Notes under the pieces: generated by a model
The model's input: the letters and a program-made list of their open reading frames with translations, nothing else
What the model was told of the DNA's origin: nothing
Databases searched by the model: none
NCBI GenBank assembly: GCA_002368175.1
Contig: AP018172.1
Span: forward strand, 29,599 to 93,598
DNA length: 64,000 nt
Direction: 5' to 3'
From: Calothrix sp. NIES-2098
GTDB taxonomy: Bacteria; Cyanobacteriota; Cyanobacteriia; Cyanobacteriales; Nostocaceae
Part shown: one piece after another, positions 1,813 to 21,644 of the stretch
How the letters are laid out: every line of letters starts with the position of its first letter
Position numbering within the stretch: the first letter of the stretch is position 1
Program-made: the position numbers and the translations under genes

Positions 1813-2011
1813 TATGGTTTTTAATCGACTCTCAACCTTCTGAAATAACTCCTCAAATCAATAGGATGACAATGCTACAAGGGATAACATTTTAAAATGT
1901 AGATTGAGGTTGGGGTAAAGGTTAAAGGTTTTTGCTTGGCTTTTGCCCCTTCCTCAACCCACAAGTATTGAATGGCATAAACTGTGGAGTTAAAAACAGA
2001 ATCAAAAAGCT

Positions 2012-2518
2012 TTACTCTAGATACAGCCTTAATTGCTCTAAGTTAATGAAGGACTCATGTATTTGTGAATTTGGAGCAAGTGAGGCTTGAAACTGCACAA
2101 CTCCAATTGCTTCAACAATTTGATGATTATAGTTTTCTACCTCATCTGGCGGGCGTAAAGATTGTTTATTCCAAGATGGGAAAATGCTCACCTTGGTGTT
2201 ATCCTCAAGCAAAATTTGCGACTTAGTATAAAGTCCTTTAAAACCTGGAATTCCAGTAGATTGTGGGTTAGGTTGCCAGGATTTTGATGTATAACGACCA
2301 ATGATTTTGACCCGTTGACCATTGAGACGAATTAAATCAACACGTTTTTTTACTATTTCCAATTTGTTGGTGGGAATTTCTTCACTACTTAACTGAGGTA
2401 TTTGGCTATTGGTGGGTTTAACTGGAGCCAATATACTTAATATTATTGATATTGATATGGTTAATCCCGAAGCCAAACTAACAGAGCGCAATTTCATTTT
2501 CTTCTCTATTTTTGGCAT
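2012..2518 (-). CDS. hypothetical secreted protein (N-terminal signal peptide)
   Basis: 168-aa ORF with a basic N-terminus followed by a hydrophobic stretch (MKLRSVSLASGLTISISIILSILA). No recognisable catalytic motif. Confidence 0.4.
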   Translation of the reverse strand: MPKIEKKMKLRSVSLASGLTISISIILSILAPVKPTNSQIPQLSSEEIPTNKLEIVKKRVDLIRLNGQRVKIIGRYTSKSWQPNPQSTGIPGFKGLYTKSQILLEDNTKVSIFPSWNKQSLRPPDEVENYNHQIVEAIGVVQFQASLAPNSQIHESFINLEQLRLYLE

Positions 2519-2804
2519 CAGGATACTACATAATTAAAAGTCTGTCTGTATAGCGGTGGTAAATCAACTCACTTGCATGGCTGCGTACCAGACCTGTGGC
2601 AAGGAGTACGAACGCTATCTTGGCGGTGAAAGTATTTTTCTGAGCAAGAGCTGCTTTGAAAGTTGAAAATTAAAGTATTTGAGTGAATCTTTTGACAATT
2701 GCCTGAACCTTACCCAAATATCTTGGTACTCACAAAATAAAAGTCAGTAGCTATACTAACTAAACATGCCTCGACAGGCTTTATCGTTAAATTCTATTCG
2801 CTAG

Positions 2805-4856
<2,052 letters not shown>

Positions 4857-5448
4857 CCTAGAGATGAATTGATGCGACGAATCAGCTACGGGTAGTAGCA
4901 GAAAATTCAAATCTTAATTTTTTATGTAATTAACGATCGTAAAAGCTTACCTACTACCCAACACAAAAATTCTTAACCAGTTGTTAATTTACGCTCAGAG
5001 TTATTCTTGAGTAAGGTTGACTTTATCAAAAAGTATAGTAATTCTAAGCATAATAGCTTATTTATATAAGTTAATTATTCCAATTGTAGAAATATTCAAA
5101 AAGCCAACACCTTATTAACGTTGGTAAACCCCCAACACCTAACCTAGGGCAGATGATAATATTTGATTATAGTTAGTCTCCCTCCTGCCGAAATTCTTAA
5201 CCAGGAGGTGGTTGTACATTCTCTGAGCGATCGCCTCCTGAATTGTGTCTTCAAGAAAATTAAATATTTTTTGCTCTGTATAGTTTTATGCTGTTCTGCA
5301 ATACAGAGGCAGTTTTTACAGAGGCTGGAGGTGTTGAACTTACGTTGGCGATCGCAGCCTTTATACCGGATTCTTTTGTTAAGCAGTAGCCAGTACTAAT
5401 TTTTTTGGGTGTATTTATTAACTTAAGTATAAATATTTATTACAAAAA

Positions 5449-6597
5449 GTGAGTCAAGCTATGACAATCGGCTTTTCTCTCCAGCAGGCAGAACATGACC
5501 TGAATGATTTGAGTGCATTCAATATCCAAAGTTTTTGCCAACTACAATCTGAACAGTTAACTAGTCAGTCTCCAATTTTATTTGCACGTATTGTTTATCA
5601 TGATTGCATTTTAAAAGCTCATCAAGAAGTAATTAGTTATGCTCAAAAACAACCTCTTTTTTCACAAAAACAATTAGCTTATCTGCGTTCAGAACAGTGG
5701 TTTAGTGACTATCCTCTGGCATTCGAGTTAAAAGAATTTAAATTAAATAATTTTTCAGAAATTGCTTACATCTGCCCTATAGGCTATCGCAATCAAAAAC
5801 CTGAGTATATTCAAATAATTGCTGAACGCGCACTTTCTCAGGAATTACAACAATACATCCAGCAATCGGCAATGCTACTTGGTAAGTATGCAAGTATGTA
5901 TTTGGTATATGGCAAACAAAAAATTGAAATTCAATTACTCGAAGAAGTTTTGCATAAAGTCGGGCATCAATTACGTAATTCTTTAGCAACGATCGGGCTT
6001 TATGCTCATAATTTATACTTGGGGTTAACAGGTAATCAGTGCCAAGAGCAAGCAACAGTTATTCGTGAAAGTATCGAAGATTTGGATACTAATTTGAACG
6101 AGTTACTAGATTGTGGACAAGGAGTGAAATTAAGAAAATCTTCTCAAGACCTAAGAACTTTAGTATTGGAAAGTATTAAAGGATTACAACCGCTAATTAA
6201 TCAAAAGCAACTTACAATCTCTATACCCGATACATCTACAAATTTAATAATAGACCGTTTACAAATGAAGCAAGTCTTCGATAATTTGCTGAGTAATGCA
6301 GTTTACTTTAGTCCTAATTCCACAACTATTACTTGTAATTGGCAGATTTTTCAAGATGAAGTGCTAATTAAAATTATTGACCAAGGAAAAGGATTATCTC
6401 CAGAAGATATTCAAAAAATATTTACCCCGTTTTATTCTCGTCGTCCCGGAGGAACGGGACTGGGTTTAACTATTGCCAAAAAAATTGTTTTAGACCATCG
6501 CGGAAACTTATGGGCACAAAGTGTATCACATGGTGGAGCGCAATTTTGTGTAATATTGCCTCGACCGAAAATGTCTAGGAGTGTCAAAGATGGTTAA
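5449..6597 (+). CDS. sensor histidine kinase (HisKA + HATPase_c); start may be the ATG at 5461
   Basis: H-box (VGHQLRNSLATIG), N-box (LLSNAVYF) and G-boxes (DQGKGL, GGTGLGLTIAKKIV). Overlaps the downstream response-regulator gene. Confidence 0.85.
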   Translation: MSQAMTIGFSLQQAEHDLNDLSAFNIQSFCQLQSEQLTSQSPILFARIVYHDCILKAHQEVISYAQKQPLFSQKQLAYLRSEQWFSDYPLAFELKEFKLNNFSEIAYICPIGYRNQKPEYIQIIAERALSQELQQYIQQSAMLLGKYASMYLVYGKQKIEIQLLEEVLHKVGHQLRNSLATIGLYAHNLYLGLTGNQCQEQATVIRESIEDLDTNLNELLDCGQGVKLRKSSQDLRTLVLESIKGLQPLINQKQLTISIPDTSTNLIIDRLQMKQVFDNLLSNAVYFSPNSTTITCNWQIFQDEVLIKIIDQGKGLSPEDIQKIFTPFYSRRPGGTGLGLTIAKKIVLDHRGNLWAQSVSHGGAQFCVILPRPKMSRSVKDG

Positions 6598-7267
6598 TAG
6601 TCAAAAACTTTCAGTTTTGCTTGTAGACGATGAAGAACGTTTTCGCCAAGGCATACGTACCCTGCTCAATTTTTATAATATTAATGCTGCATTACCTATA
6701 GAAGTTGTCGGTGAAGCAGACTCTGTAGAACAAGTTTTAAAACTGACACAGCAGAAGTCTCCAGATTTAATTTTACTGGATTTACAATTAAGCGGTAGTG
6801 ATGGTATTACAGCTTTAGTTCGTTTAAAAGAAATTGCTTATACTGGCAAAGTTTTAGTTTTATCAGCCCACCAAGAAGATGATTGGATTTTCCGGGCTAT
6901 GCAAGCAGGCGCAGCAGGTTATGTATTTAAAAATCGCTTGGCTACTCAATTGGGCGAAGCTATTAAAACTGTGATGCAATCAGAAATTTATTTACCTTCA
7001 GAAGTTGCTAGCCGATTTTTTAGATTCTTTCAAGCTTACTCCGATTCCTCATTAAGAGCTTGCCATCAGTTACACTTAACAGAAAGAGAACAAGAAGTTT
7101 TATACTGGTTAGCTCAAGGTGCTTCCAATGAAGAAATTGCCAAGCATTTATATGTAACCGTTGCCACTGTAAAAGCTCATCTCACTAGCATTTTTGAGAA
7201 GTTAAAAGTTACCAGCCGAACTCAAGCTATTGTAGCCGCCCTCAAGTTAGGACTTGTAAAAGCTTAA
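6590..7267 (+). CDS. response regulator, NarL/FixJ family (REC + LuxR-type HTH)
   Basis: LLVDDE phospho-acceptor region, LILLDLQLSG, and a C-terminal LuxR HTH (EREQEVLYWLAQGASNEEIAKHLYVTVATVKAHL). The ATG at 6590 overlaps the HK stop (ATGGTTAA), consistent with an operon. Confidence 0.85.
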   Translation: MVNSQKLSVLLVDDEERFRQGIRTLLNFYNINAALPIEVVGEADSVEQVLKLTQQKSPDLILLDLQLSGSDGITALVRLKEIAYTGKVLVLSAHQEDDWIFRAMQAGAAGYVFKNRLATQLGEAIKTVMQSEIYLPSEVASRFFRFFQAYSDSSLRACHQLHLTEREQEVLYWLAQGASNEEIAKHLYVTVATVKAHLTSIFEKLKVTSRTQAIVAALKLGLVKA

Positions 7268-7295
7268 GAAGCAGAGTCAAGAGTCAAAAGTCAAT

Positions 7296-7384
7296 TAATT
7301 ATTTCTCCCTTGTCTCCCTTGTCCCATTTCTCCCCACACTCCCCACACTCCCCACTCTCCCTGCTGCCCCTCCGCCTCCCCTTT
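7296..7384 (+). repeat. ~85-nt polypyrimidine (C/T) tract immediately upstream of the pseudokinase gene
   Basis: The sequence tttctcccttgtctcccttgtcccatttctccccacactccccacactccccactctccctgctgcccctccgcctcccc is almost purely C/T. The ORF caller translates it as low-complexity SPHSPHSPLSLLPL, which is unlikely to be coding. Confidence 0.5.
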
Positions 7385-9511
7385 ATGCCTTCATCTGAAT
7401 ATTTTTATCAAGAATACCCTTGCTCTTACAATGCGCCTTTGAATTGCGATCGCCCTTTCCAAACGGCTCAAGAAATCAAAGGTGCTAGGTTTTGTTTGGA
7501 ATGTGGTTTTCCGGCTACTTTACCGCAGGAAGCTGAGATTAAAGGCAATTTGGGTATTTATCAGGTGCATAATTATTTAGGAGCGCGGGGTAATGGTAGG
7601 TTATACGCAGGTATTCACCTGAAGGATCGACAACCTGTAATTATTAAAGAATACTTGCTACCTAGTCGTTGTTTTAATGAAAAAGAGACTCAAGACCGTA
7701 AAGAAACTTTTAAGCGGGTGGGAGGGGTAAGTTTAGCTGATAGTAGAACCCCTAATTTTCGGCTTGTGAATACTTGGGAAGCGATCGCAGATGAAAAAGG
7801 AGAACGCTGTTATTTAATTACTCAAGGTACAGAAACAGCCCAAACCTTAAGACAATATCTTACCCAATATGGGTCAATGAAAGCGCCTCAAGTGCGCGAA
7901 GTATTAAATCAGGCTCTCCAAACTCTAGAATTTTTGCATAGCCAAAAGCTGCGGTTTCCTTCAAATCAAGTACAGCAAGGGCTAGCCCACGGAAACTTGA
8001 GTTTAGATAGCATCTTAATTCAAGTTGAAAATAATCAACAATATATATATTTTGACGATTTAGCTATCTGGGAAAATGTATTTATTCCTCCTAGTATTTC
8101 CCAACCTGCACCTTGCAAACGCGAGTACGATCTAGAAGCACTAGGATTAGTGGCTTTTTATTTATGGGTAGGCAGAACTACCGATTATTCTCATCAGCCT
8201 CTAGACCCCAGAGAAAACGAACATTGGCCTACTAGCGATCCCGATTTAAAAAAATTTATTTCCCGCCTACTACGATTAGAAAATCCGTTTGCAACTGCTG
8301 AATCTGCCCGCGAAAGTCTACTGCAACTACCTCAAGAGTATCAAGCGAGTAGTTTAAGACAATTACCTGAATCTGAAGAAAAAGAAAAGAGTATACGCAC
8401 CAAATTAATTGGGCTAGGAATTTTAGCATTCCTTATCCTAGGAGGTGGGATTTGGTATTATCTTTGGCAACGTCATCAACCAGAAGATAATAGTAAATAT
8501 ATCCCTTGGTTTGGACTAGTACGTAACTTTTCGGAAGTTAACAACGTGCCTTCAGGCAAATTCACCTATACAGGCGAACGAGATGGAACCTGGAGTTTCA
8601 TTTTGAAACAACAAGTTGACAATAATAGTTTAGAAGATTACTTAATCAATCCCAAACCAGAAGTAAAAGCAGAATTTAACTACGAACCAGTTACTTCGAT
8701 AGATTTAGATAATCTTAATCAACCTCTAGAAGAACTAGCAAGTGGTAAGAAAGACTTTGCAATTACTAGTTTAGTAGATAAAATAACAGATAAATTAGAG
8801 CAAAAACCAGCGATCAATGATGGATTACTTGTATATGTAGCATTTAATAAAAAAGATTCCAATTTAGCGAATGCTCTAAGAGGACAAATTACCCTTGAGC
8901 AATTGCGCCAAATTTATACAGGTAAAATTACCAATTGGCAGCAAATTAATTCTCAACTTCCTAATTTAGAAGTCAAACCCTTTGCTCCTACCGAACCGGA
9001 AGCTATACAAAAATTTCAAGAAATAGTGTTAAAAAATGACCCACAAGATAAAGCTTTATTTGCAGCCAATGTAGAAAAATTGGATACAACAAAAACCCAA
9101 AATCAGATACGCAGAGAAATTCTCGAAGGGCGAAATACAGGCATCATTGGTTTTGGGATTATTGCTAAAACTTGGGCGCAGTGTACGGGCTATCCCTTAG
9201 CGATCGTTGATGGTAACAAGCCACCTAGTCAACCGCTATTTCAACGTCGCGAACGTCGCCCTATCAATACCGCAGATGACCTGTGCCAACACGATAACTA
9301 TTTTTTTGATGTTAATGCTTTTCAAAGCTATCCTTTAAGATACCCTATATTTGTGGTGTACCCTAAAGACAAAAGTCGCCAAGCCGGGTCTACATTTGCT
9401 GAGATACTAACTACTCGTCAGGGCCAGTGTTTACTTAGTAAAGTAGGTCTTATCCCTTTACAACCTATACCTGATGAAATAAGGACTTATGCCTGCAAAT
9501 CGGTGCCCTAA
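7385..9511 (+). CDS. membrane-anchored pseudokinase: N-terminal Zn-ribbon-like Cys motif, degenerate protein-kinase-like domain, one TM helix and a ~330-aa extracytoplasmic domain
   Basis: Cys pattern (CSYNAPLNC...CLECGF). Kinase-like segments are present but the catalytic HRD is replaced (HGNLSLDSILI) and DFG is replaced (DDLAIWE), so it is predicted inactive. TM helix LIGLGILAFLILGGGIWYYLW. The likely true start is the ATG at 7385, after the C/T tract. Confidence 0.6.
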   Translation: MPSSEYFYQEYPCSYNAPLNCDRPFQTAQEIKGARFCLECGFPATLPQEAEIKGNLGIYQVHNYLGARGNGRLYAGIHLKDRQPVIIKEYLLPSRCFNEKETQDRKETFKRVGGVSLADSRTPNFRLVNTWEAIADEKGERCYLITQGTETAQTLRQYLTQYGSMKAPQVREVLNQALQTLEFLHSQKLRFPSNQVQQGLAHGNLSLDSILIQVENNQQYIYFDDLAIWENVFIPPSISQPAPCKREYDLEALGLVAFYLWVGRTTDYSHQPLDPRENEHWPTSDPDLKKFISRLLRLENPFATAESARESLLQLPQEYQASSLRQLPESEEKEKSIRTKLIGLGILAFLILGGGIWYYLWQRHQPEDNSKYIPWFGLVRNFSEVNNVPSGKFTYTGERDGTWSFILKQQVDNNSLEDYLINPKPEVKAEFNYEPVTSIDLDNLNQPLEELASGKKDFAITSLVDKITDKLEQKPAINDGLLVYVAFNKKDSNLANALRGQITLEQLRQIYTGKITNWQQINSQLPNLEVKPFAPTEPEAIQKFQEIVLKNDPQDKALFAANVEKLDTTKTQNQIRREILEGRNTGIIGFGIIAKTWAQCTGYPLAIVDGNKPPSQPLFQRRERRPINTADDLCQHDNYFFDVNAFQSYPLRYPIFVVYPKDKSRQAGSTFAEILTTRQGQCLLSKVGLIPLQPIPDEIRTYACKSVP

Positions 9512-10160
9512 TCCTAATTGCGAATATTTTAACCGCGCTTTACCCAACAATGCGAAGGTTTGCCCTTGGTGCTCAACTCCCTTGGGTAATGTAATTACAC
9601 CTACACCAACTCCTACTAGATCCGTTCCACCCCAACCAACGCCTCCACAACAAACTCCACCGCAAGCAACTCCATCACCATCTGTTCCACCCCAACCGAC
9701 TCCACCTAAACGACCAGTAGCAAATCCACCTGGCTATCCACCCCCCGGTGATTATTCCACAGAGTATCAGCAACGAGTTCCCCCCTACGTTCCACCCGTA
9801 CAGCCTGCGTATACTCCGCCACCGCCAAGATTACCACTGCTGAAGCTAATTCACTCTACAGGTAGAGAATTCCAGTGGTCGGGGGAAGCAGGTTACATTG
9901 GTCGGCGCAGTCAAAGTATGACAGTTCCGCCAGAAATTGACTTAACTGGTATTCCCCATGAGGGAATAATTTCTCGTCGCCATGCAAGGATTTATTGGGA
10001 CTGGTCGCAAAATGCGTACACAATCGTTGATATGAGTACAAATGGTATTTATTTAAATAACACTCTGTTAAATCCTGGCGTGCAATATCGTTTACTTAAT
10101 GGCGATTCATTGCAGTTCGGTCAAGATAATCTCGTGCGATTTACAGCGTATGTTATGTAG
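9489..10160 (+). CDS. FHA-domain protein with N-terminal zinc ribbon and Pro-rich linker
   Basis: CPNPNC...CPWC zinc ribbon; PQPTPP repeats; C-terminal FHA signature (GRRSQSMTVPPEIDLTG...ISRRHARIYWD...STNGIYLNNTLL). Overlaps the upstream pseudokinase gene by 23 nt. Confidence 0.8.
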   Translation: MPANRCPNPNCEYFNRALPNNAKVCPWCSTPLGNVITPTPTPTRSVPPQPTPPQQTPPQATPSPSVPPQPTPPKRPVANPPGYPPPGDYSTEYQQRVPPYVPPVQPAYTPPPPRLPLLKLIHSTGREFQWSGEAGYIGRRSQSMTVPPEIDLTGIPHEGIISRRHARIYWDWSQNAYTIVDMSTNGIYLNNTLLNPGVQYRLLNGDSLQFGQDNLVRFTAYVM

Positions 10161-10284: not shown

Positions 10285-13200
10285 TTATCGCTCTACTTTC
10301 TGGCGTAACTTCTCCATCAGCTGTTGTTTGCGGTCTATTCCTTTCATCCTCATATCAACCATCTGTTGAATAATTTCTTCTTGTTGTAAACGATTCAAAC
10401 CAATTTCTGGATCGGGAGAAACACGATAGCGCTGAGTAATTTTAGCAGCAATTTCTGCATCATCTGCATTAATTAACCACCGGGATGCTTCAGGAATAAC
10501 TTCATTACCATAGTCTGCTGCTACCTTTTGAATTAACTTTTGCTGCATCAAATGTGCTTGATATTCTGCATAGAAAATTTGATTGGATATGATAGATGCT
10601 TCGGTAATTCTTTGAAAATGGTGAGTTAATTCATGTACTACTGTTCCAGCAACACCGTTAACTGAAGTATCGCCAGCGATAAACACTGTACGCGTGCTGG
10701 GTTCGTAAAAACCACCTGCTTTTAAGTTAGGATTGTTAATATATTTTCCAACTAATGTTGTAGCTTGAGCTTCATTTTTTATAGCTTGCCTAATAGCTTC
10801 CTCGGTCATTGGTAGAATCTTACCTTGTTGTGTTAGTTCCAAAAAGGTAGCGGTGTAAGCTTCATTTGTATAGCGTGCTAATACTAAGCCTACCTTTGCG
10901 CGATCGACATCTCTAAAAGCAGCGCCAACTGCTTCAATTTGTTCGGCAATATTCAAGCCTTGTTTCAAATTTCGCTTGGCGATATCAATTAATTTCTGTG
11001 CTTGTTCTTGAGGTAAAACTTTAGTTGCTGCTTTGGAAAAGGCTTCTAATGTTGTTGCGGCTTGGCGTAATTGTTTAAAATAACTGGCAAGCATTAAGGC
11101 GTTGGCTGCAAAATCCGCGATCGCAATTATCAACCAGATTAACTGGGGATCTTCGGCTGACATTTTGGCGATCGCCGGATCGAGACCTACATCACTAGCA
11201 GCCGATTGTTTGCTATAAGTTGAGGCCTTCTCCACCACATCAATCGCACTAACAACCGTACCGACTGCGATTGCAATTCCGGGATTGAGAGTTACTATAC
11301 TGGCAATAATACCTGCTGTAATCGCAAAAGCTTTGAGTCCATCTTCTAAGCTTTTCTCATCAGCTTTAATTTGCTGTTCTTTTTGAATCCGAGTGTTAAT
11401 TACCGACGATAACGTAGGGTTTTGATCTATGCCTAAATCTTGTTTCGTCATCCCCACAATATCGTTTAACTGCCAAATCCTCAGTTTATCTTGGCTAATA
11501 TTGTCTTCTGTAGTGCGGATATTTTCGAGAATTTCATCAATTTTGCCACCAACAATCGATGTTAACTCTGCATCTGAAGCAGTTGCTAATTTTTCTACAT
11601 CGATATCTTCTCGTAGCAAAATCTGATATTTCAGTGCATAATTAGATTTTTGTGCCTTTAGTTCATTTTGCTTTTGTTCAATTCGTTGCTGAATTTCTGA
11701 TTCATGGGCTAAATCATAAGCTGATGAACTCGCCTGTTCTGGTTCTGGGACACCACCTGGGGGTAAATCTTTGTGTGCTTCCCGCAGTTGTAGCTGTAAA
11801 TTTTCAATCTCTTTAGTACGCGCAGTTAAATCCTTAGCAGCATTCCGCAGTCCTTCGCGTTTCTGAGGGCCATTATCACCTGCTTCCGTACAAATATCTT
11901 TATATTTATCTGCTTCTTTTTGCGCAAGTTCTCGGTTTTGTCGTAATTGCACCAAGGCTATTTGCTTACCTCGGTTGACAAACATATTCGGGAAATCTTC
12001 TGTCACTAACTTGACTAACTGGCTTTCTTCTACATTTAAAGATTTCAGTACCGCCTCGACCATCTTTTTTTGGTTCTCGAAATCAGCAGTTAGTGCATTA
12101 ATTTCATTAGATAACAAATCTCTTTGAGCTTCTTTGGCTTCAACTTCTGGGGTGCGACCGCTATAGTCTTGGATATCACGCTTTAACTGTTCCAGTTGTT
12201 CGGTTTTTTGTTTCAGTTCTTCACCCTTTTTGTCCCGTTCCTGAATTAAGGTAAAGGCTGTAGCATCCTTCATTGCAGTGTTGAGAGTTGCCTTAGAACC
12301 TTCATCTAAAGGAGGTGTTTCCTTCAGAGTAGTTCTCGCATACATCAGCCTGCGCGCATCCTCCGGTGACAGTCCTGGGTTATTCGCTGTACCTGCATCA
12401 GGAGTTTGACGCTGAATTAACATCACCTGTCCTGAGAAATTCCCTAGTTGGGGACGAAGTACGGGAATTTGGCTAAAATTATGACCGGATGTTTTCGCCA
12501 TCACCACAGTTTCAGAAGATGGTTCTTCACTGCTACTAGTTTTCTCAGCTTTTTTGCTACATTCCGCAGATAAATCAATTTCTGTGGGAGGAGTTTGTTT
12601 GCGACCATGATCTGTGGTGGTGTCATACTGGTCGTGTACTGCTTGGACTTTAGCTCTCAGTGCGTCACTTTCGCTAGTTACATCACTTGTAGCTTTCCCA
12701 ATAAAGCGCTGATGAGCAGAGGGGAATTCTTTGTTATCAATAGCAACGTGACCATCTTCATGATTTTTCAGCGCGCTATAGAAGTTATCCCATGATTGTT
12801 GTACTGGTGGGCATTGTTTGTTGCGTTCTGCCCATCGTGGCATGGTCATCACCTGAGTGACGTTAAGATTTGCTTGGGTTATGGGATCGCCTTGAGTAGT
12901 CACTTTGAAGTTAAAATCCACAGAGCCAGCTTCATCAGGCAGATTATTGGCAACTTCGTCTAAATTTTTACCGTGATAGGTGTTGTGTTGCAGGGTGGGA
13001 GGATTTTGGATGGTAGTGCTTCCAGATGAGGGGTTTTTGGCTGCTGGTTGAGCATTGTTTAATTGTGGCGTATCGCTTTGTAGGGGAGGATTTTCATCTA
13101 GTTGACGTAACAAAAGGTTAGTTGTAGGACGTACATGGGGTTGGCAAGAAATACGCCCAATATCATGTTCAGCCAGATTTTGCGGAGAAGCTTCTGCTAA

Positions 13201-13383
13201 CAATAATTCTTCTGTAGAACTTGGTGCAGTTTGAATTTGCGGTGTATTAATTGGCGGTGTGAAATTGGGTGTTGATGCGGCTAGTGATGGTTGCGTAGCG
13301 TTTTGGGGTGTAGTTTTTTTGCGTTGTGTTTTTATGCGATCGCTTGTCATGTCACCCAATTCCCCATCAACTGCTACAACCAA
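10285..13383 (-). CDS. large CIS effector-like protein: N-terminal FSxIPV-type leader motifs, coiled coil, two predicted TM helices, C-terminal HExxH zincin-like motif
   Basis: 1032 aa. Two copies of the motif typical of DUF4157-family toxins (HDIGRISCQPHVRP and HNFSQIPVLRPQ). A long charged coiled-coil region. Hydrophobic helices (AFAITAGIIASIVTLNPGIAIAVGTVV, LIWLIIAIADFAANALMLASYF). HELTHH near the C-terminus. Transcribed divergently from the CIS structural operon, downstream of a DUF4157 gene. Confidence 0.55.
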   Translation of the reverse strand: MVVAVDGELGDMTSDRIKTQRKKTTPQNATQPSLAASTPNFTPPINTPQIQTAPSSTEELLLAEASPQNLAEHDIGRISCQPHVRPTTNLLLRQLDENPPLQSDTPQLNNAQPAAKNPSSGSTTIQNPPTLQHNTYHGKNLDEVANNLPDEAGSVDFNFKVTTQGDPITQANLNVTQVMTMPRWAERNKQCPPVQQSWDNFYSALKNHEDGHVAIDNKEFPSAHQRFIGKATSDVTSESDALRAKVQAVHDQYDTTTDHGRKQTPPTEIDLSAECSKKAEKTSSSEEPSSETVVMAKTSGHNFSQIPVLRPQLGNFSGQVMLIQRQTPDAGTANNPGLSPEDARRLMYARTTLKETPPLDEGSKATLNTAMKDATAFTLIQERDKKGEELKQKTEQLEQLKRDIQDYSGRTPEVEAKEAQRDLLSNEINALTADFENQKKMVEAVLKSLNVEESQLVKLVTEDFPNMFVNRGKQIALVQLRQNRELAQKEADKYKDICTEAGDNGPQKREGLRNAAKDLTARTKEIENLQLQLREAHKDLPPGGVPEPEQASSSAYDLAHESEIQQRIEQKQNELKAQKSNYALKYQILLREDIDVEKLATASDAELTSIVGGKIDEILENIRTTEDNISQDKLRIWQLNDIVGMTKQDLGIDQNPTLSSVINTRIQKEQQIKADEKSLEDGLKAFAITAGIIASIVTLNPGIAIAVGTVVSAIDVVEKASTYSKQSAASDVGLDPAIAKMSAEDPQLIWLIIAIADFAANALMLASYFKQLRQAATTLEAFSKAATKVLPQEQAQKLIDIAKRNLKQGLNIAEQIEAVGAAFRDVDRAKVGLVLARYTNEAYTATFLELTQQGKILPMTEEAIRQAIKNEAQATTLVGKYINNPNLKAGGFYEPSTRTVFIAGDTSVNGVAGTVVHELTHHFQRITEASIISNQIFYAEYQAHLMQQKLIQKVAADYGNEVIPEASRWLINADDAEIAAKITQRYRVSPDPEIGLNRLQQEEIIQQMVDMRMKGIDRKQQLMEKLRQKVER

Positions 13384-13559
13384 GATAAGGCTTGTCTATT
13401 GCCAATTACCATCGACCTAAGATTAAAATTCTGCTAAGGGACTTGTAACTAAAAAAATATCTCAATTTATCAAACCGCATTAGACACGCAGTGGCTTCCC
13501 GCAGGCTAGACGCCAAGTACGCCAAGAATTCGTAGCGTGGGCGTAAGTCTTATCTATTT

Positions 13560-13866
13560 GGAGTACTTCAAAGTCGTGTTGAGGTACTTCAAAGTCGTGT
13601 TGAGGTAGTTCACAGTCATGTTGGAGTACTTTGCAATCGTGTTGAGGTAGTTCACAGTCGTGTTGAGGTACTTCCAAATCGTATTGAGGTACTTCAAAGT
13701 CGTGTTGAGGTACTTCAAAGTCGTGTTGGGGTACTTCACAATCGTGTTGAGGTAGTTCACAGTCATTTGGAGTACTTTGCAATCGTGTTGAGGTACTTCA
13801 AAGTCGTGTTGGGGTACTTCACAATCGTGCTGGAGTACTTCAAAGTCAAGTTGAGATACTTCACAG
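13560..13866. repeat. tandem array of ~14.5 copies of a 21-bp unit (consensus GTACTTCAAAGTCGTGTTGAG)
   Basis: Directly visible: head-to-tail units with point variants (gtagttcacagtcgtgttgag, gtactttgcaatcgtgttgag, ...). Lies between the DUF4157 gene and the 1032-aa gene. Confidence 0.9.
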
Positions 13867-13871
13867 TATAT

Positions 13872-13903: not shown

Positions 13904-14599
13904 TTAATGATTTTGCTGCACAACGTGAGTTAATTCGTGAGCAAGTAACTCTTTACCTGGGTTACTTTCGGGAGCATATTCACCCTGACGGAAAAATATA
14001 TCTTGTCCGGTAGTGAAGGCGCGGGCTTGAATAGATTGGTTCATTTGGTCGGAGCGAGTATTATTGTGAATTTTGACACCGCTAAAATCAACGCCAAATG
14101 CTTGCTCCATTGGTTGGCGAACATTATCTGCTAGTGGCTGTCCGCTTCCCCGTGCTTGTTGAATAGAAGATTCTAAATTCGCTGCGGCTTCTGTCCCACC
14201 TTCAGTAGATTTAGCCTGTATTTCCTCTTCTGGTAGTTCTTCTCGTTGCACAAGGGGAGTGATGGAATCTCCTAGAGATTTTTTTTGCAGTGTTTCTTCT
14301 TCTGGTAATGCTTCTCGCTGGATAGGCTGACTCATAGTTTGCATTACCTGCTGCGCAACTCTATCGGCTTCTTGTTCATAAACATCCCCAGGTTGACTAA
14401 CTGCGAGTTTGGTTTGCGGACGTAGCGAGATGCGGCTAATGTCATGACCGAGGGGTTGGTTTTGAGATTGTACCTCAGCCACAGTTTGAGGGGAAGCTTC
14501 AGATGATTGTAAACCAAAGCCACGTTTTGGCTTGAGTGTAGGTATGGAAACGGGCGTAGTGTCAGCCTTTTGGCGCTGGGCTAATATGCGTTCTTTCAT
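13904..14599 (-). CDS. DUF4157-domain protein (eCIS-associated zincin-like HExxH domain), stand-alone
   Basis: The C-terminal 80 aa match the DUF4157 pattern closely (AFGVDFSGVKIHNN...ARAFTTGQDIFFRQGEYAP...LLAHELTHVVQQ). The N-terminus has the HDISRISLRP leader motif. The protein ends 4 aa after the HExxH. Confidence 0.85.
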   Translation of the reverse strand: MKERILAQRQKADTTPVSIPTLKPKRGFGLQSSEASPQTVAEVQSQNQPLGHDISRISLRPQTKLAVSQPGDVYEQEADRVAQQVMQTMSQPIQREALPEEETLQKKSLGDSITPLVQREELPEEEIQAKSTEGGTEAAANLESSIQQARGSGQPLADNVRQPMEQAFGVDFSGVKIHNNTRSDQMNQSIQARAFTTGQDIFFRQGEYAPESNPGKELLAHELTHVVQQNH

Positions 14600-15015
14600 T
14601 TTTTTCTCCTAATGCCCAAGCAGCAAGTAAATTTTTTATCAGTAGAGATATCTAGAATAGTGCTTCTCTCTGCCAAAGTCTAAATTAGGCAAAACTCAAG
14701 TTCGACTTTTGGCTAGTGTTGATTCTGATGCACTACCTTTAGCCTTGATTTTAGGATGAATTTTTTATTTTTAGTTATGGACTCAGAAGGAAAGCAAACT
14801 TTTTTTACACCTATTGGAGAAGTTGGGGGTAGTGTTGGTTATTCAGGCGTGTCAATTACCTCTAACCCCAGCCAAGTAGCTAAAGCAGCCGATAAGTATC
14901 TTAAAGACTCATTGCTTTTGCACAAGCTTACCGAACGTGTATATGAAATTTTACTTGAAGACCTGCGTTGCCAAAAGGAAAGGTTCAATAACTATAGTCA
15001 TCAAAGGTGGTTGTA

Positions 15016-15534
15016 ATGGCTGAAGGTAATAACGGCAATATTTCTCACGAGTTAAAGTATGTCACTACAAATCATTTCTATGTAGAAATCGATAGTTCTA
15101 TCGCTGCATCTTTTACTGAATGCGCTGGATTAAGTATGCAAGTGAAAAAAAATGTTTTTTTTGAAGGAGGTGTCAACGACCAGCAAAGAATTTATTTAGG
15201 ACACGCAGAATTTGCCGATGTCACTCTTAAACGCGGTGTCACCGACCACCCCGGTTTTTGGAATTGGATTAATGCAATTTTTGATGAAAAATCCACTACT
15301 CGGCGTAATGTTAATATTTTGGTTTTTAACCAAGCTGGCGAAACGATGATGAGTTGGACATTGATTGGTGCTATTCCTATATCTTGGAAAACACCAACCT
15401 TACAAGCAGATGGTAACGCAGTTGCTATAGAAGAATTAACTTTAGCTTATGAAGGTTTGCAATTAGGTAAATCTAAAGGCGGCGGTAATCCACAAACACG
15501 CGAGAAAAAGTCAGGTTTTTTCTTGTCTAATTAA
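15016..15534 (+). CDS. contractile injection system tube protein (T4 gp19 / Cis1-like)
   Basis: Conserved tail-tube family pattern (HFYVEIDS...FTECAGLS...YLGHAEFADVTLKRGVTD..FWNWI...WTLIGAIPISWKTPTLQADGNAVAIEELTLAYEGL). ATG at 15016; the ORF track begins at an upstream GTG. Confidence 0.85.
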   Translation: MAEGNNGNISHELKYVTTNHFYVEIDSSIAASFTECAGLSMQVKKNVFFEGGVNDQQRIYLGHAEFADVTLKRGVTDHPGFWNWINAIFDEKSTTRRNVNILVFNQAGETMMSWTLIGAIPISWKTPTLQADGNAVAIEELTLAYEGLQLGKSKGGGNPQTREKKSGFFLSN

Positions 15535-15557: not shown

Positions 15558-18500
15558 ATGCAAATTATTCAACCATTAATAGTAACTAAATTTCAACCGC
15601 TTGGGTTTGGAGTGAGAAAGCCTCTAGGTTATTCTCATCGACTTTTGTCAAGAAAAGAGTCTAGTTCTCTGTACGGTCATCATACTATCAAACCTTTAGG
15701 CGATCGCGTACCATTAGTCACCTATTCTCAATTTTTACAATCTCACGATAATCAAGTATTTAGCGACCCATCAATAGATGCTAATTTTCCAGAAACTGAA
15801 AATATTAATACTGACCTGACCTTAATTCAATTTGATACAGTTGATTCAGTTTTCTCAGATAGTAATAATCTTGATTCTGAATATATAGAAGGCGATATTC
15901 CAAATATATTACCTACTGCAAACACCAGCGACACGAATAATATTACACTGGAATCAAATATTAAAGTTAAGTCAAAATCCAAAAGAACGGAGAAATTGTC
16001 CGACTCTGAAGCTAAATCAAAGGCTAAATCTAGAGCTAAAAAAACGACTAAATCATCTAAGCAGATAGATGATATTCCTATTGTTAATAATAATGATGGG
16101 TTAGTAACACTCAATCAAAATCAAGCTTTAGATGCTAATAAAGAAACTAAAATACAGTCAAATATAAATGATAAAATAACTGATGGCGGTACTTCTATTA
16201 ATACCTGGAAAGCTTCGCTTATTGTTAATAATGAATCTGGATTAAGCGAGAATTTTGCTAATGAGGAAACGCCAGCGATCGCTGATTCTGTATCTACTGT
16301 AGATCGTGCTGATTTACCAACTATATCTCCTGCTACTAATAGCAGTGAAATTAGGACGCGATCGCCACAAGAAACTGCGTCAAAAACTATTGCTAATGAC
16401 ACTGCAAAAAGTTCAGAGTCAGAATCTAATGTAACTAGTATTGTTGATACATTAACTCTTTTAAGTAACTTAAATCCTAGAGAACAGACTATATTAACTG
16501 AAGATTCACAAGTTGTTGATGTCTCAGATATTCCAATTAACCAAACTGCAAAACAACAGGAAATAGTTACTAATTCAAATATCCTTAACCAACAAGATCT
16601 ATTCTCTACACAACAGCAGGAACATTTACCAGCTACAATTAGGAATTCTCAAGAAATTACAAACAATCTTCCAGACTCTAGCAATTATTTGTTAGATACT
16701 ACTAAACCTAGAGTTGAAGATACAGCTAATTTATCCCGTAATTTAGTAAATCTTTCCGAAGCACCATCTCCTCTACCCAACACTGAAGATTTAACTACAG
16801 TTAATGCATTAGATGCAGAAAATATTCCAAATATAACCACACCGGAAATTGTTAGTAATATATCCGTTCAGCCAGCACCAATCTCACCTGTAATTGAAGA
16901 TAACCTAATAGTCACTCCAGAATTACAGTCTACAGAAGTAGTTAATTTTGCGAATGCGCCAGCAAATGTCACTCCTCTACAAACTGACAGCACTAGCAAT
17001 ATACAATTAGCATCAACCTCGCCTGTAATTGCACAGGCGATAGTCACCTCAGAATCACAGTCTCTTGAATCAGATAATTTGGGGAACGCGCCAGAAAATG
17101 TCACTTCTCTACAAACTGACAGCACTAGCAATATACCCGTTCAGCTAGTACCAACTCCACCTGTAATTGCAGATAGGGGGATAATCTTGGATGCGTCAGA
17201 AAGTATAACTCCCCAACAAACTGACAACGCCAGCGATGTACCCGTTGAATTAGCAGCAACTCCACCTTTCATTGCAGATAACCCCATAATCGCTTCAGAA
17301 TCGGTTAATTTGTCGGATATACGAGAAAATATGACTCACCGACAAACTGATAGCACCAGCAATGTACCCGTTCAGCTAACGCCAACCTCACCTGTAATTG
17401 CAGATAACCCGATGGTGAGTTCAAAATCCCAATCTGCTGAATCAGTTAATTTGCTGGATGTGCAAGAAAGTCTGGTTTTATCCCCAGATGATAGCCAAAA
17501 AAACACAGAAATTCCAACTGTTGTCACTCCACTTCAATTGCGCCAAAGTACTGAAGTGGATACAGTAGCAGTAGATGAGAGTGCGATGTCTGACGAAAAG
17601 CCACATAGTGTCTACGCATCTGCCACATCAAGTATTATTTTGGAAGCTGGTAATGACGAACAACCTGTAAAACCAGATTTACCATCTACGGTTACAAGCT
17701 TGACTTTCACAGAGAATCAGTCAGAAACCTTAGATAACTTACCCGCACCACAAGGTTTTGCAACCGGGGGACAAGTCACACACTCCTCAGTGGAAAATCC
17801 ACAGATAGCATCTTCGGATACAGTCCCTGCTATGCTCACACCTGGGGAATTTGTCGTTAATGCTAATGATGCTCAGAAAAATCTTCACATACTCCGGCAT
17901 ATCAATACTGGTGGTACAGCAGAGGATATGATCCTTCCCAGTTTAGAGCTACCAACTCCAGAGACTCCGACTAAAGTCGATTCTTTTGCTGACACTTCAT
18001 TACAGCGTCAAAAATCTGATAATAGCGAATCTGAGGAATCTAACTCCCTAACTCCTGCTTCTTTAAGCACAGAAATTAGTCAGCACAGGCTTTCTTCACA
18101 CAGTTCTTTACCGCTAAATACTGTTGAAAACAATACTACTGCAAGAACTGAACCCTCTCCTCATTACTCATTACCTACATTAATCTTCCGCAAAACTACT
18201 TCCAACACTAACGCACCCTATGAAACGCCTACCCAATGGTCAAGTGTGGAAGAATTACTCAATGGAAACAACGATCCATTTACATCTTTTAACTTTAATG
18301 AGGAAGAATCTAACTGGCAAAATTCAGAACATTCTCAAACTTCACAACCATCGCCGCAAGTTTTTACTAAACGCCTAACTTCGGCTCAAGGCTTTGCTAA
18401 CGGTGGAGAAGTCACAGCACCCGATATAGCTACAGATATACAGCCAATAACTGAAACCATACAAAGTCCTTCTGCTGCTAATCCCGAAGCCGATGAATCT

Positions 18501-18605
18501 AGAAATCTAGAAGCTTTAGCCTATGAAATATATAACAGATTGCGACAACGAATAGAAGTTGAGCGAGAGCGTCAAGGTATCTATTTAGGTCGTTTACCTT
18601 GGTAA
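15558..18605 (+). CDS. 1015-aa low-complexity Ser/Thr/Asn/Asp-rich repeat protein; candidate tape-measure-like or cargo protein occupying the position where a sheath gene is expected
   Basis: Basic N-terminal ~60 aa, a Lys-rich patch (KSKSKRTEKLSDSEAKSKAKSRAKK), four to five 42-44-aa tandem repeats (..NVT.LQTDSTSNIPVQL.PT.PVIADN..), two GFA(T/N)GG(Q/E)VT motifs, and a structured C-terminus (LEALAYEIYNRLRQRIEVERERQGIY). Not sheath-like. Confidence 0.5.
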   Translation: MQIIQPLIVTKFQPLGFGVRKPLGYSHRLLSRKESSSLYGHHTIKPLGDRVPLVTYSQFLQSHDNQVFSDPSIDANFPETENINTDLTLIQFDTVDSVFSDSNNLDSEYIEGDIPNILPTANTSDTNNITLESNIKVKSKSKRTEKLSDSEAKSKAKSRAKKTTKSSKQIDDIPIVNNNDGLVTLNQNQALDANKETKIQSNINDKITDGGTSINTWKASLIVNNESGLSENFANEETPAIADSVSTVDRADLPTISPATNSSEIRTRSPQETASKTIANDTAKSSESESNVTSIVDTLTLLSNLNPREQTILTEDSQVVDVSDIPINQTAKQQEIVTNSNILNQQDLFSTQQQEHLPATIRNSQEITNNLPDSSNYLLDTTKPRVEDTANLSRNLVNLSEAPSPLPNTEDLTTVNALDAENIPNITTPEIVSNISVQPAPISPVIEDNLIVTPELQSTEVVNFANAPANVTPLQTDSTSNIQLASTSPVIAQAIVTSESQSLESDNLGNAPENVTSLQTDSTSNIPVQLVPTPPVIADRGIILDASESITPQQTDNASDVPVELAATPPFIADNPIIASESVNLSDIRENMTHRQTDSTSNVPVQLTPTSPVIADNPMVSSKSQSAESVNLLDVQESLVLSPDDSQKNTEIPTVVTPLQLRQSTEVDTVAVDESAMSDEKPHSVYASATSSIILEAGNDEQPVKPDLPSTVTSLTFTENQSETLDNLPAPQGFATGGQVTHSSVENPQIASSDTVPAMLTPGEFVVNANDAQKNLHILRHINTGGTAEDMILPSLELPTPETPTKVDSFADTSLQRQKSDNSESEESNSLTPASLSTEISQHRLSSHSSLPLNTVENNTTARTEPSPHYSLPTLIFRKTTSNTNAPYETPTQWSSVEELLNGNNDPFTSFNFNEEESNWQNSEHSQTSQPSPQVFTKRLTSAQGFANGGEVTAPDIATDIQPITETIQSPSAANPEADESRNLEALAYEIYNRLRQRIEVERERQGIYLGRLPW
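16840..17470 (+). repeat. intragenic tandem repeats of ~126-132 bp (x4-5) inside the 1015-aa gene
   Basis: Repeated DNA blocks such as gcgccagcaaatgtcactcctctacaaactgacagcactagcaatata... and gcgccagaaaatgtcacttctctacaaactgacagcactagcaatata... Confidence 0.8.
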
Positions 18606-18757: not shown

Positions 18758-19306
18758 ATGGCTACTCAAACAATTATCATTCCCCAAAAAAGGAATCCGC
18801 AACTACAGAAAGCTAAACTCGTAGCTTATGAAGGTGAAGCACCAGATATTGAACTGATGTTTAACCCTACAGAAATTAGTTTTTCTCGGACTGTTAGCTG
18901 GGAAAAAGAGAAAGGTAATAGAGGAACCACATTATTACCTAAAGTAAATTTCTCTGGTCTAGAACCTTACAAATTCACTCTTAAACAATTACTCTTTGAT
19001 ACTTATGAAACTAAACAATCCGTAATGGATTATATAGACATCATCAAGCAAGGAGTAGAAACTATTGAGCGAAATCCAGATAAACGTCCCCCAGTGTATA
19101 GGTTTATTTGGGGAATAGAATATTTTCATTGTGTAATTACTAGTCTCACATACAATTTAAATATGTTTCTGACTGATGGTACGCCAGTTAGAGCAATAGT
19201 AGATATCTCTTTACAAGAGGTAGATAAAAAGAACCCACCAGGGGGGAGACAATCAGCTTCTAAAGGCGCAAATCGTCAGCCAAATCCTAAGCTAGGAAAA
19301 ACTTAA
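18758..19306 (+). CDS. CIS tube-fold baseplate/tube-initiator protein (Cis5/Cis7-like)
   Basis: 182 aa. FNPTEISFSRTVSWEKEK...FSGLEPYKFTLKQLLFDTYE resembles the second, tube-like protein that sits between tube and spike genes in eCIS loci. The call rests on synteny plus this motif only. Confidence 0.5.
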   Translation: MATQTIIIPQKRNPQLQKAKLVAYEGEAPDIELMFNPTEISFSRTVSWEKEKGNRGTTLLPKVNFSGLEPYKFTLKQLLFDTYETKQSVMDYIDIIKQGVETIERNPDKRPPVYRFIWGIEYFHCVITSLTYNLNMFLTDGTPVRAIVDISLQEVDKKNPPGGRQSASKGANRQPNPKLGKT

Positions 19307-21131: not shown

Positions 21132-21644
21132 ATGACAGGAAGAGCAGCAGCAAGAATTACTGACTCAGTAGCGCACCCCTTACCCCCAGTGTTAACCCCA
21201 GGCCCCGGTAGTAACAATGTGTTAATTGGCAATTTACCAGCTTGGCGGGGTATACCTGCGGCGGCGGTGCCTGCTTTGCAGACTGCTAAACAAGCGGCTG
21301 ATACAGCTATCCAAGCGGCGGAGGCTGCTACTTTAGCGGCGGCGGGAACGCCAGGAGCACCAGCAGCCTATGCATCTGAACAAGCTCTCAAAACATCTCT
21401 GGGAGCTAGTATGAGTAGCATGATTTCTGCGGCTGCGGCTGCTGCTATCCCTGGTGCTGATATTCATCAATGTACTACGCCCTTACCCCTACCTCCCCAC
21501 GGGCCTGGGGTTGTGATTGACGGGAGTCAGACAGTAATGATTAACGGACTACCCGCTTGTCGTATGGGTGACACTGTTTTAGAAGCATTAGGCCCGCCGA
21601 ATAAAATTACCAAAGGTGAAATGACTGTTTTGATTGGTGGCTGA
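21132..21644 (+). CDS. PAAR-domain spike-tip protein (Cis10-like)
   Basis: Split PAAR motifs (ARITDSVAHPLPPVLTPGPGSNNVLIGNLPA ... HQCTTPLPLPPHGPGVVIDGSQTVMINGLPACRMGD) flanking an Ala-rich linker. Confidence 0.8.
   Translation: MTGRAAARITDSVAHPLPPVLTPGPGSNNVLIGNLPAWRGIPAAAVPALQTAKQAADTAIQAAEAATLAAAGTPGAPAAYASEQALKTSLGASMSSMISAAAAAAIPGADIHQCTTPLPLPPHGPGVVIDGSQTVMINGLPACRMGDTVLEALGPPNKITKGEMTVLIGG

Follow-up and report, generated by a model that had tools for sequence, protein, structure and literature searches.

A predicted-disordered repeat protein in the tape-measure slot of a cyanobacterial contractile injection system

How is particle length set in contractile injection systems (CIS) for which no tape measure has been recognised? 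Homologues of afp14 are described as "generally absent" from lineage II CIS, and a gene for a tape-measure protein (TMP) is stated to be absent from the Streptomyces CIS clusters, yet the particles of CIS-Sc (subtype IId) are uniformly 268 nm long. A 64,000-nucleotide stretch of the genome of Calothrix sp. NIES-2098 (hereafter the window) bears on this question, as it carries an open reading frame (ORF) of 1015 amino acids (aa), beginning with ATG at position 15558 and running on the forward strand to 18605, in the midst of genes for phage-tail-like parts. In a homologue search the predicted product matched, at 100% identity, a Calothrix sp. NIES-2098 entry annotated as a hypothetical protein. 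A first-pass annotation had described it as a serine-, threonine- and asparagine-rich low-complexity protein occupying the "sheath position", and had offered two roles for it, tape measure or cargo of the tube lumen. Translation and composition agree with the description of the ORF, and the observation as a whole is partly confirmed: it is largely correct, with the wrong positional label. The interpretation is partly supported, in that a tape measure is the better supported of the two roles, given a phage TMP motif, presence in all the related loci that were retrieved, and conserved termini around a variable middle. We consider it somewhat better than an even bet that the protein is a divergent, disordered, TMP-like scaffold or ruler of the lumen that is anchored at the spike hub.

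The position of the gene is the first part of the argument. Pfam and NCBIfam assignments give the operon order as a 79-aa gene, a gp19/TIGR02241 tube gene, the 1015-aa gene, CIS_tube (Cis7-like), VgrG, PAAR, gp25, Baseplate_J, Tail_P2_I and DUF4159, the last encoding a protein with a weak CIS13 N-terminus (Cis13-like). The flanks of the 1015-aa gene are therefore a tube protein upstream and CIS_tube, VgrG, PAAR and gp25 downstream, and the gene sits in the classical phage TMP slot, after the tube and before the tube initiator and spike. The annotation had taken the Afp gene order as its reference and for that reason considered a tape measure here to be placed out of the usual order; tube, TMP, then tube initiator and spike is the usual order in phages, and the Streptomyces CIS carry a large ORF in a similar slot. 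Genes for a sheath, a cap, a Cis1 tube or tail-assembly proteins were found nowhere in the 64-kb window. In Brasilonema octagenarum plasmid pBOCT2 (CP030123.1; loci L084/L085), a divergent sheath operon is situated upstream of the baseplate operon, at a distance of about 10 kb. It encodes a Pvc16_N cap (293 aa), a 555-aa sheath, three paralogues of the gp19 tube protein, a pair of "tail assembly" proteins of 115 and 126 aa, and a protein with a forkhead-associated (FHA) domain. The sheath is canonical, with Phage_sheath_1 and 1C domains, and its operon shows that the system is a bona fide contractile machine in two operons. No gene of that sheath operon is a candidate for another TMP.

The same comparison places the system among known CIS. 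The closest solved relative of the window VgrG is Cis8 of the Streptomyces coelicolor CIS (9GTR, E 1.4e-60), with the Anabaena thylakoid-anchored system (tCIS, 7b5h) at E 1.4e-36. The Brasilonema sheath is 39-41% identical to the sheaths of Streptomyces and Deinococcus, and the two Brasilonema tail-assembly proteins are 46-57% identical to a Streptomyces protein of 164-170 aa. The system is most likely a relative of the Streptomyces subtype-IId CIS whose genes are divided between two operons in Nostocales.

The second part of the argument is a motif shared with phage tape measures. Residues 733-791 match the TMP family phrog_25241 at E 2e-5, as do 30 of the 34 family members, and 15 of the 34 match the TMP family phrog_17300; several other TMP families are matched by individual members. 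An exhaustive profile search over 1.84 billion cluster representatives returned 5540 proteins at E<=0.001, and among the best matches were proteins of 2.6-7.9 thousand aa with 4-9 copies of the motif. All three of the giants that we scanned hit TMP PHROGs, and one has additional matches, in its N-terminal part, to phrog_28 and phrog_167. Their repeat reads GG(M/V)(I/V)YA..G.L(I/V)..(Q/E)P(R/K)GTDTVPAMLTPGEFVVN(R/A).A.Q.NL.LLQ.IN, and the core DTVPAMLTPGEFVVN is identical between the giant phage TMPs and the Calothrix protein. We regard this homology, which is read from sequence, as real, if local. The two GFA(T/N)GG(Q/E)VT motifs recorded at first pass are indeed present, at aa 733, where one opens the TMP motif, and at aa 945. 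In its general plan the protein resembles phage TMPs (PHROG 25241, 17300, 28, 167, 973 and 934, and the giant multi-motif forms) in being a long chain with fixed ends and a variable middle, encoded between tube and hub or spike genes, and in carrying the motif of ~55 aa (GG.V...DTVPAMLTPGEFVVN...N L..L..IN.GG) nearly letter for letter. It differs in that the match is limited to this short motif, that no helical or coiled-coil body is predicted, the middle being built of acidic S/T/N/P/I/E-rich repeats, and that the element is chromosomal and part of a CIS.

In order to follow the gene among relatives, we scanned one genome per species with the C-terminal domain, which identified relatives in 183 species, and used the best 80 loci. 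A search with the whole protein had yielded only four matches because low-complexity words saturated the candidate list, a problem that was solved by a query of the C-terminal 291 aa. Nearly all of the 80 loci are labelled as Nostocales, the exceptions being three metagenome bins with other labels. A counterpart of the 1015-aa gene is present in every one of them, and gene order is invariant wherever the contig covers the neighbours; the same order from the 79-aa gene to the Cis13-like gene is also found on the Brasilonema and Pseudanabaena plasmids. In none of the 80 loci is a sheath gene found in this slot, and their flanks differ, with no recurrent sheath gene; a cap gene lies within the flank in a single locus (L050). 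Conservation within the protein is confined to the first ~60 aa (MQIIQ..LG....PLGV..) and a constant C-part of ~290 aa, which measures 280-301 aa in all alignment rows printed. The C-part contains the blocks GFATGG.V..SDTVPAMLTPGEFV(I/V)N..DAQKNL.LL.HIN.GG, YSSP.LIFRK, PSQWSSVEELLNG and GFA.GGEVT, with W894, E898 and L900 invariant in family alignments A2/A3, and closes with LE.LA.EIY.RLRQR.EIERER.G.Y.GRLPW-COOH.

Between these fixed ends the sequence turns over and is built of lineage-specific repeats. The annotation had counted four to five tandem repeats of 42-44 aa. Five units are present (aa 433-463, which is partial, 470-513, 514-548, 549-590 and 591-637), and all score well above chance when aligned locally to the seed unit (77-115, compared with a mean of 36.7, sd 4.4 and a maximum of 52 in 300 shuffles); the uniform length did not hold, as complete units range from 35 to 47 aa. 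At the DNA level the units are 69-86% identical to one another. Tandem Repeats Finder did not report them, and detection took protein-level alignment. Copy number, which the annotation had proposed to compare among strains, does differ between relatives: the Calothrix protein exceeds that of Aulosira or Nostoc T09 by one unit, and likewise its three closest orthologues. Between genera the middle is unalignable, with units of about 44 aa in Calothrix and units of about 12 aa, TSPEI(G/V)ET, in Nostoc. Even so, 56 complete Nostocales orthologues span 686-1409 aa with a median of 1115, and 55 of the 56 fall between 980 and 1409 aa, the outlier being that of Cuspidothrix at 686 aa. In Nostocales the repeats turn over completely while total length is kept near 1000-1300 aa, which fits selection on length and not on sequence.

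The repeat region also affects how the family is represented in databases. In 19 of the 80 loci the contig ends inside the orthologous gene and in 5 of the 80 the gene contains runs of N, and many database entries of the family are "partial" proteins of 300-500 aa. The repeats break short-read assemblies, and as a result the family is under-represented as full-length proteins.

The composition of the Calothrix protein (S 12.5%, T 10.3%, N 8.7%, P 7.5%) gives an acidic isoelectric point (pI) of 4.4 overall, against which the basic N-terminus and the Lys-rich patch noted at first pass both stand out, with values of 10.4 and 10.7, respectively. An AlphaFold2 (AF2) model of the full length, built on an alignment of four sequences, has a mean predicted local distance difference test (pLDDT) score of 30.5, and a model of the last 291 aa, built on 34 sequences, reaches 51.8. 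The sole confident element is a helix at aa 976-1006 (pLDDT about 86-94), in agreement with the short structured C-terminus that had been proposed; a helical hairpin at aa 769-791 is weaker (about 70-78). Helices in the full-length model are limited to aa 56-60, 298-305, 769-783, 897-901 and 976-1006, and the middle of the protein is predicted to be disordered. Scans of the protein against Pfam and NCBIfam gave no family match, and none of the NCBIfam TMP models matched at E<=1.

In the C-terminal helix and its tail, E, L, A, E, L, Q, E, E, R, G, G as well as the final W are invariant, and this end of the chain has a counterpart in the same operon. The C-terminus of the 79-aa protein, LTERVYEILLEDLRCQKERFNNYSHQRWL, is paralogous to that of the 1015-aa protein: an hhalign comparison of the 79-aa family (A4) with the 1015-aa family (A3) aligns it to aa 979-1010 at E 4.6e-5 and 69% probability. 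A six-frame scan of the window for the helix motif located it at these two C-termini only, in each case exactly 10 residues before the stop codon. The 79-aa protein itself has no Pfam match, DUF5908 included.

A related helix closes proteins in comparable positions outside the cyanobacteria. The Streptomyces plasmid clusters are arranged as assembly protein, DUF6760 peptide, large low-complexity ORF, Cis1b, LysM-Cis7 and VgrG. We identified four such large ORFs on Streptomyces and Streptantibioticus plasmids (L087:9004-12711, L090:~1261-5406, L091:2576-5638 and L092:~3014-5734), of 1020 aa in NBC_01324, where the gene is annotated, 1235 aa in NBC_01426, and about 1381 and about 906 aa in the two others. 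The ORF is under-annotated, with only the last 255 aa called in L087 (NBC_01426) and 71 aa in L090. In a GC3 frame test of the 1235-aa ORF, Ala and Pro codons raise GC at all codon positions; the long form is supported by an N-terminal region common to all four ORFs and by the PGAP call of the full 1020-aa gene. The four end in ..LDELARRL..P(V/L).RLLRTELR..RER.GR, and these C-termini match the cyanobacterial C-terminal profile at E 3.7e-4 (probability 36%) and the 79-aa family at E 9.9e-5. N-terminal similarity between the cyanobacterial proteins and the Streptomyces large ORFs is not significant (E 0.18). In CIS-Sc the corresponding gene would be SCO4249, which lies beside Cis1b/SCO4248 and whose product was detected by mass spectrometry in purified CIS-Sc particles and left unnamed. 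The Streptomyces large ORF (SCO4249 position) thus resembles the 1015-aa gene in lying between the tube and chaperone genes and Cis1b/Cis7/VgrG amid related machinery, in its low-complexity sequence of about 900-1400 aa, and in its conserved N-terminus and C-terminal helix, L(D/E).LA..(I/L)...L(L)R..L...RER.G. It differs in being basic and rich in Pro, Ala, Gly and Arg where the Calothrix protein is acidic and S/T/N-rich, in lacking the phage TMP motif, and in preceding, not following, the second tube gene.

A more distant counterpart is encoded in the sheath operon of a Deinococcus psychrotolerans plasmid, where the order is sheath, tube, assembly-protein homologue, small ORF, tube and a protein of 1831 aa (L093:3140-8635, minus strand). 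The latter combines about 1480 low-complexity residues with a DUF4157 zincin-like domain (HELTH) and the C-terminus LDRLAQQIYGILKRRLATEVRREH, which matches the 1015-aa family profile at hhalign E 1.5e-5 and 80% probability. A protein with a cargo-associated domain thus ends in the same "address" as the Calothrix protein.

The reference tape measure of the extracellular CIS (eCIS) is Afp14/Pvc14/Alg14/Cis14 (PF19268), an experimentally supported ruler. Like it, the Calothrix protein is long, CIS-encoded, presumed to lie in the tube lumen and mixed in the conservation of its ends. The afp14 gene, unlike the 1015-aa gene, follows the fibre gene and is not placed between tube and initiator, and the middle of Afp14-type proteins is alpha-helical, with no sequence or profile similarity to the Calothrix protein. 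The C-terminus, for which the annotation had suggested a comparison with Cis14, gave a negative result: there is no PF19268 (CIS_TMP) match at E<=10, with Afp14 as control at E 1.9e-49, and the family profile A3 compared with Afp14 by hhalign reaches a probability of 0.04%. We therefore reject membership of the Afp14/CIS_TMP family. The length of Alg14 tunes particle length at about 0.22 nm per residue, and the ratio found empirically for eCIS is 0.2156-0.229 nm for each residue of the TMP. That ratio predicts 219-232 nm for a chain of 1015 aa and about 240-255 nm for the median orthologue; conversely, the 268-nm CIS-Sc particle would call for 1170-1243 aa, inside the observed range of the Streptomyces ORFs.

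If the protein is a ruler, it may work as follows. The C-terminal helix and ...GRLPW tail would bind at the VgrG/Cis7 hub, in its cavity or just above it, perhaps with or beside the 79-aa protein that carries the paralogous helix, as the Cis6/Pvc6 plug and the C-termini of phage TMPs do. The ~290-aa C-part, with the TMP motif DTVPAMLTPGEFVVN, would nucleate tube assembly, and the acidic, unfolded, repeat-built middle, of about 400 to 1100 aa in Nostocales, would extend up the lumen in stretched-out form. The ~60 aa of the basic N-terminus would then reach the distal end, where the cap (Cis16) may stop growth, in which case the length of the particle would be fixed, or at least limited, by that of the chain. 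When the particle fires, the protein would be expelled together with the spike, as happens with phage TMPs. Largely unfolded rulers have a precedent in YscP of type III secretion and FliK of the flagellum, secreted proteins in which a change in repeat number or length alters the length of the needle or hook. They show that a ruler need not be helical; they belong to unrelated systems, have no known sequence relation to the Calothrix protein, and act by substrate-specificity switching without templating a tube.

Several observations weigh against a tape measure. The middle of known phage and eCIS TMPs is mostly alpha-helical, and the AF2 model has essentially no helix outside aa 769-791 and 976-1006, in a protein with 7.5% Pro; the full-length model rests on four sequences and is of low confidence, so that the missing helix is predicted and not proven. 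The nm-per-residue ratio used above came from helical TMPs. In addition to the failure to match PF19268 or Afp14, sequence searches of solved structures came back empty for the whole protein and for the profiles of its C-terminus and of the 79-aa protein. The Pseudanabaena, Streptomyces and Deinococcus counterparts lack the TMP motif, and the C-terminal matches across phyla extend over only about 30 residues, at hhalign probabilities of 36-80%. A hallmark of cargo, DUF4157, is present in the Deinococcus counterpart. Length, finally, has a 3.7-fold spread in the wider family, from 686 aa in Cuspidothrix to 2531 aa in an orthologue on a plasmid of Pseudanabaena sp. ABRG5-3 (L086:5759-13354), which occupies the same slot, has the same C-terminus and keeps the SWSNIAELL block; a ruler would then need particles of 150-580 nm.

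Wide length variation would be no obstacle if the protein were lumen cargo, that is, an unfolded effector that is fed into the tube, whether or not an AAA+ loader takes part, and then injected into the target, its length being irrelevant to that of the particle. Disorder is required of lumen cargo (bioRxiv 10.64898/2026.05.27.728243), and nearly the whole chain is predicted to be disordered. DUF4157 (eCIS_core) cargo likewise has disordered regions and resides in the lumen; the Deinococcus protein joins DUF4157 to the same C-terminal helix; and a hydrophobic-Q-R motif, detailed below, is periodic in the Pseudanabaena and Streptomyces counterparts and is also present in the neighbouring DUF4157 protein. 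Nevertheless, we think this role unlikely. No toxin, enzyme or DUF4157 (PF13699) domain was found in the 1015-aa protein by Pfam, PHROG or NCBIfam scans, and a phage TMP motif was. Wherever the contig covers it, the gene is present once, as a core gene whose internal position is fixed, and the recognisable cargo genes are divergent and outside the operon (Table 1). Cargo loading needs an N-terminal disordered region, and loading signals are generally poorly conserved; here the conserved part is the C-terminus and not an N-terminal loading sequence, and the N-terminus, itself predicted to be disordered, shows no similarity to those of the neighbouring DUF4157 and DUF922 proteins (best E 1.2). 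As for the Deinococcus protein, enzymatic domains are common in phage TMPs, so its DUF4157 does not contradict a TMP role.

Alternatively, the protein may plug the hub and start the tube without measuring it: the C-terminal helix would act as a Cis6/Pvc6-like plug that starts tube polymerisation, the disordered remainder would drift freely, and length would be set in some other way. Pvc6, a helix present in three copies, fills the gp27-like spike cavity facing the lumen and is essential for particle assembly. Plugs of this kind (Cis6/Afp6/Pvc6/Alg6; DUF5908, PF19265) share with the Calothrix protein a C-terminal amphipathic helix of about 28 residues, the helix is common to the 79-aa protein, which is of plug-like size, and Afp6 aligns with both helices in the same register, although not significantly (hhalign E 0.047-0.063). 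The extremely fast evolution of the middle, with repeats that break many assemblies, is also what a freely drifting chain would lead one to expect. However, neither protein matches PF19265, plugs measure 50-59 aa as against 1015 aa, and a dedicated small protein is already there for the role; the 79-aa protein may be a Cis6-like spike plug or an assembly partner. Moreover, conservation extends far beyond the helix, to the ~290-aa C-part and the N-terminal 60 aa, and 55 of 56 Nostocales orthologues hold their length near 1000-1300 aa although the repeats have turned over completely. We consider a plug without a ruler role improbable, and slightly more so than cargo. A divergent sheath or an external structural protein such as a fibre or surface protein, suggested by analogy with the Afp order of tube, sheath, tube and by the occurrence of S/T/P-rich repeats in surface proteins, is extremely improbable, and sheath identity is rejected, since the Pfam scan finds no sheath domain (as the annotation had itself noted, nothing resembles a sheath fold), no fold is predicted, the flanks are the tube adaptor and tube initiator, and the same system in Brasilonema has its genuine, canonical 555-aa sheath in the separate operon of pBOCT2.

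Returning to the tape-measure reading, a wider generalisation can be offered only tentatively, and we would sooner doubt it than rely on it. These proteins could be tape measures of a kind not recognised before, intrinsically disordered and evolving through their repeats, and as such what is "missing" for length control in subtype-IId-like CIS, among them CIS-Sc (SCO4249 position) and the cyanobacterial relatives. They would attach to the hub by a C-terminal helix paralogous to a small plug-like protein and would measure as an extended chain and not as a helix, and in Deinococcus they would have fused DUF4157, blurring the line between ruler and payload. Searches based on Afp14 miss the family because it has no globular or helical body, its repeats are often truncated in assemblies and the Streptomyces counterpart is under-annotated. 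The 1015-aa family is a concrete, testable candidate for length control in lineage-II CIS. If it is a ruler, an unfolded chain can template a phage-tail-like tube, and the repeat region, modular by nature, would offer engineered injection systems a way to adjust how long the particles are and how much cargo they hold. Shared by the TMP-like protein, the 79-aa protein and the DUF4157 giant, the C-terminal helix is, in turn, a candidate for a general "hub or lumen address" of this CIS lineage.

Table 1. Coordinates, in the window, of the 1015-aa gene, its parts and its neighbours
Feature	Position	Strand	Evidence
Whole gene; predicted-disordered repeat protein, tape-measure-like candidate	15558..18605	+	ORF, translation
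Basic conserved N-terminal region, aa 1-60, MQIIQPL..PLGV..RLLSRKESS..PLVTYSQFL	15558..15737	+	pI 10.4; alignment A1, 54 orthologues
Lys-rich patch, aa 135-170	15960..16067	+	14 K/R in 36 aa, pI 10.7; partly conserved in alignment A1
Five tandem repeat units of 31-47 aa, aa 433-637, core N(V/M)T.LQTDSTSN(I/V)PVQL.PTSPVIADNPIV	16854..17468	+	Alignment scores, DNA identity
Phage tape-measure motif, aa 733-791, GFATGGQV..12 aa..SDTVPAMLTPGEFVVNANDAQKNLHILRHINTGG	17754..17930	+	PHROG match; nearly invariant in alignments A2/A3
Two short conserved blocks, YSLPTLIFRK (aa 870-879) and TPTQWSSVEELLNG (aa 890-903)	18165..18266	+	Family alignments A2/A3
Second, partial motif start GFANGGEVT, aa 945-953	18390..18416	+	Kept as GFAxGGEVT in alignments A2/A3
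C-terminal amphipathic helix and tail, aa 976-1015, ..NLEALAYEIYNRLRQRIEVERERQGIYLGRLPW-COOH; proposed hub/spike docking element	18483..18602	+	AF2, conservation
79-aa conserved protein; ORF listed from 14756, conserved start MDSEGK	14777..15016	+	Upstream of tube gene in 63 fetched cyanobacterial loci
gp19-type tube protein, Cis5-like adaptor; 23-nt gap to the 1015-aa gene	15007..15534	+	PF06841 E 6e-39; TIGR02241 above cutoff
CIS_tube, Cis7-like tube initiator, directly downstream	18758..19306	+	PF19266 E 4e-24
VgrG-like spike, presumed docking partner of the C-terminal helix	19340..21100	+	Phage_base_V, Phage_GPD domains
PAAR protein, 170 aa; PAAR motif aa 121-170 only, ~120-aa N-terminal extension	21132-21644	+	Pfam
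DUF922 + DUF6782 putative metallopeptidase, 1032 aa; divergent, probable effector	10285-13383	-	Domain scans
231-aa protein ending in DUF4157/eCIS_core; divergent, probable effector	13904-14599	-	PF13699 E 1e-32

The hydrophobic-Q-(R/K) motif is an observation in its own right. It recurs 42 times in the 2531-aa Pseudanabaena orthologue (2.6 expected), at a spacing of about 50 aa, and is enriched in the Streptomyces large ORFs (5-20 copies, 0.2-0.5 expected). It is also present in the disordered N-terminal part of the DUF4157 protein of the window (PIQRE, LVQRE), and Nostocales orthologues have a single copy. It may be a lumen-binding linear motif.

Among the neighbours of the 1015-aa gene, the tube protein scores higher with CIS5 than with CIS1, both below cutoff. 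The best 120 of its 920 homologues are 69-89% identical, and no second copy from Calothrix NIES-2098 could be identified among those 120. Several related loci have no PAAR match, or have extra DNA between VgrG and gp25, and the stretch between the DUF4157 gene and the module differs in length among related loci. A scan for promoters and terminators around the 1015-aa gene gave sites no more numerous than in shuffled sequence, and a literature search with the motif string returned no match.

Upstream, between the DUF922/DUF6782 and DUF4157 genes, lies a 21-bp tandem repeat of 14.6 copies (consensus GTACTTCACAGTCGTGTTGAG, window 13563-13867), which yields a probably spurious 100-aa ORF on the minus strand (13480-13782) with the heptad (E/C)(V/L)PQHD(C/F). 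No Cis15 gene was seen near the module in the window or in the Brasilonema regions examined; a CDC48/FtsH-like AAA+ ATPase of 507 aa is encoded 24 kb downstream of the module (window 50238-51761, minus strand), and nothing marks it as a Cis15 loader.

Finally, a cassette encoding a histidine kinase, a LuxR response regulator, a pseudokinase with a PBP domain (733 aa) and an FHA protein (223 aa) lies beside the CIS module on the plus strand (window 5449-10160), and parts of it adjoin the module in 5-13 of the 80 loci. Brasilonema has the same cassette, with genes for histidine kinase, response regulator, kinase and FHA protein, between its sheath and baseplate operons, the sheath operon itself ending with the FHA protein, of 773 aa. 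In Deinococcus, a 1592-aa FHA-kinase is encoded beside Cis7; we considered this gene as a counterpart of the 1015-aa gene, and it is not a homologue. By analogy with PpkA/Fha in type VI secretion (T6SS), the FHA and kinase genes suggest control by Thr phosphorylation.

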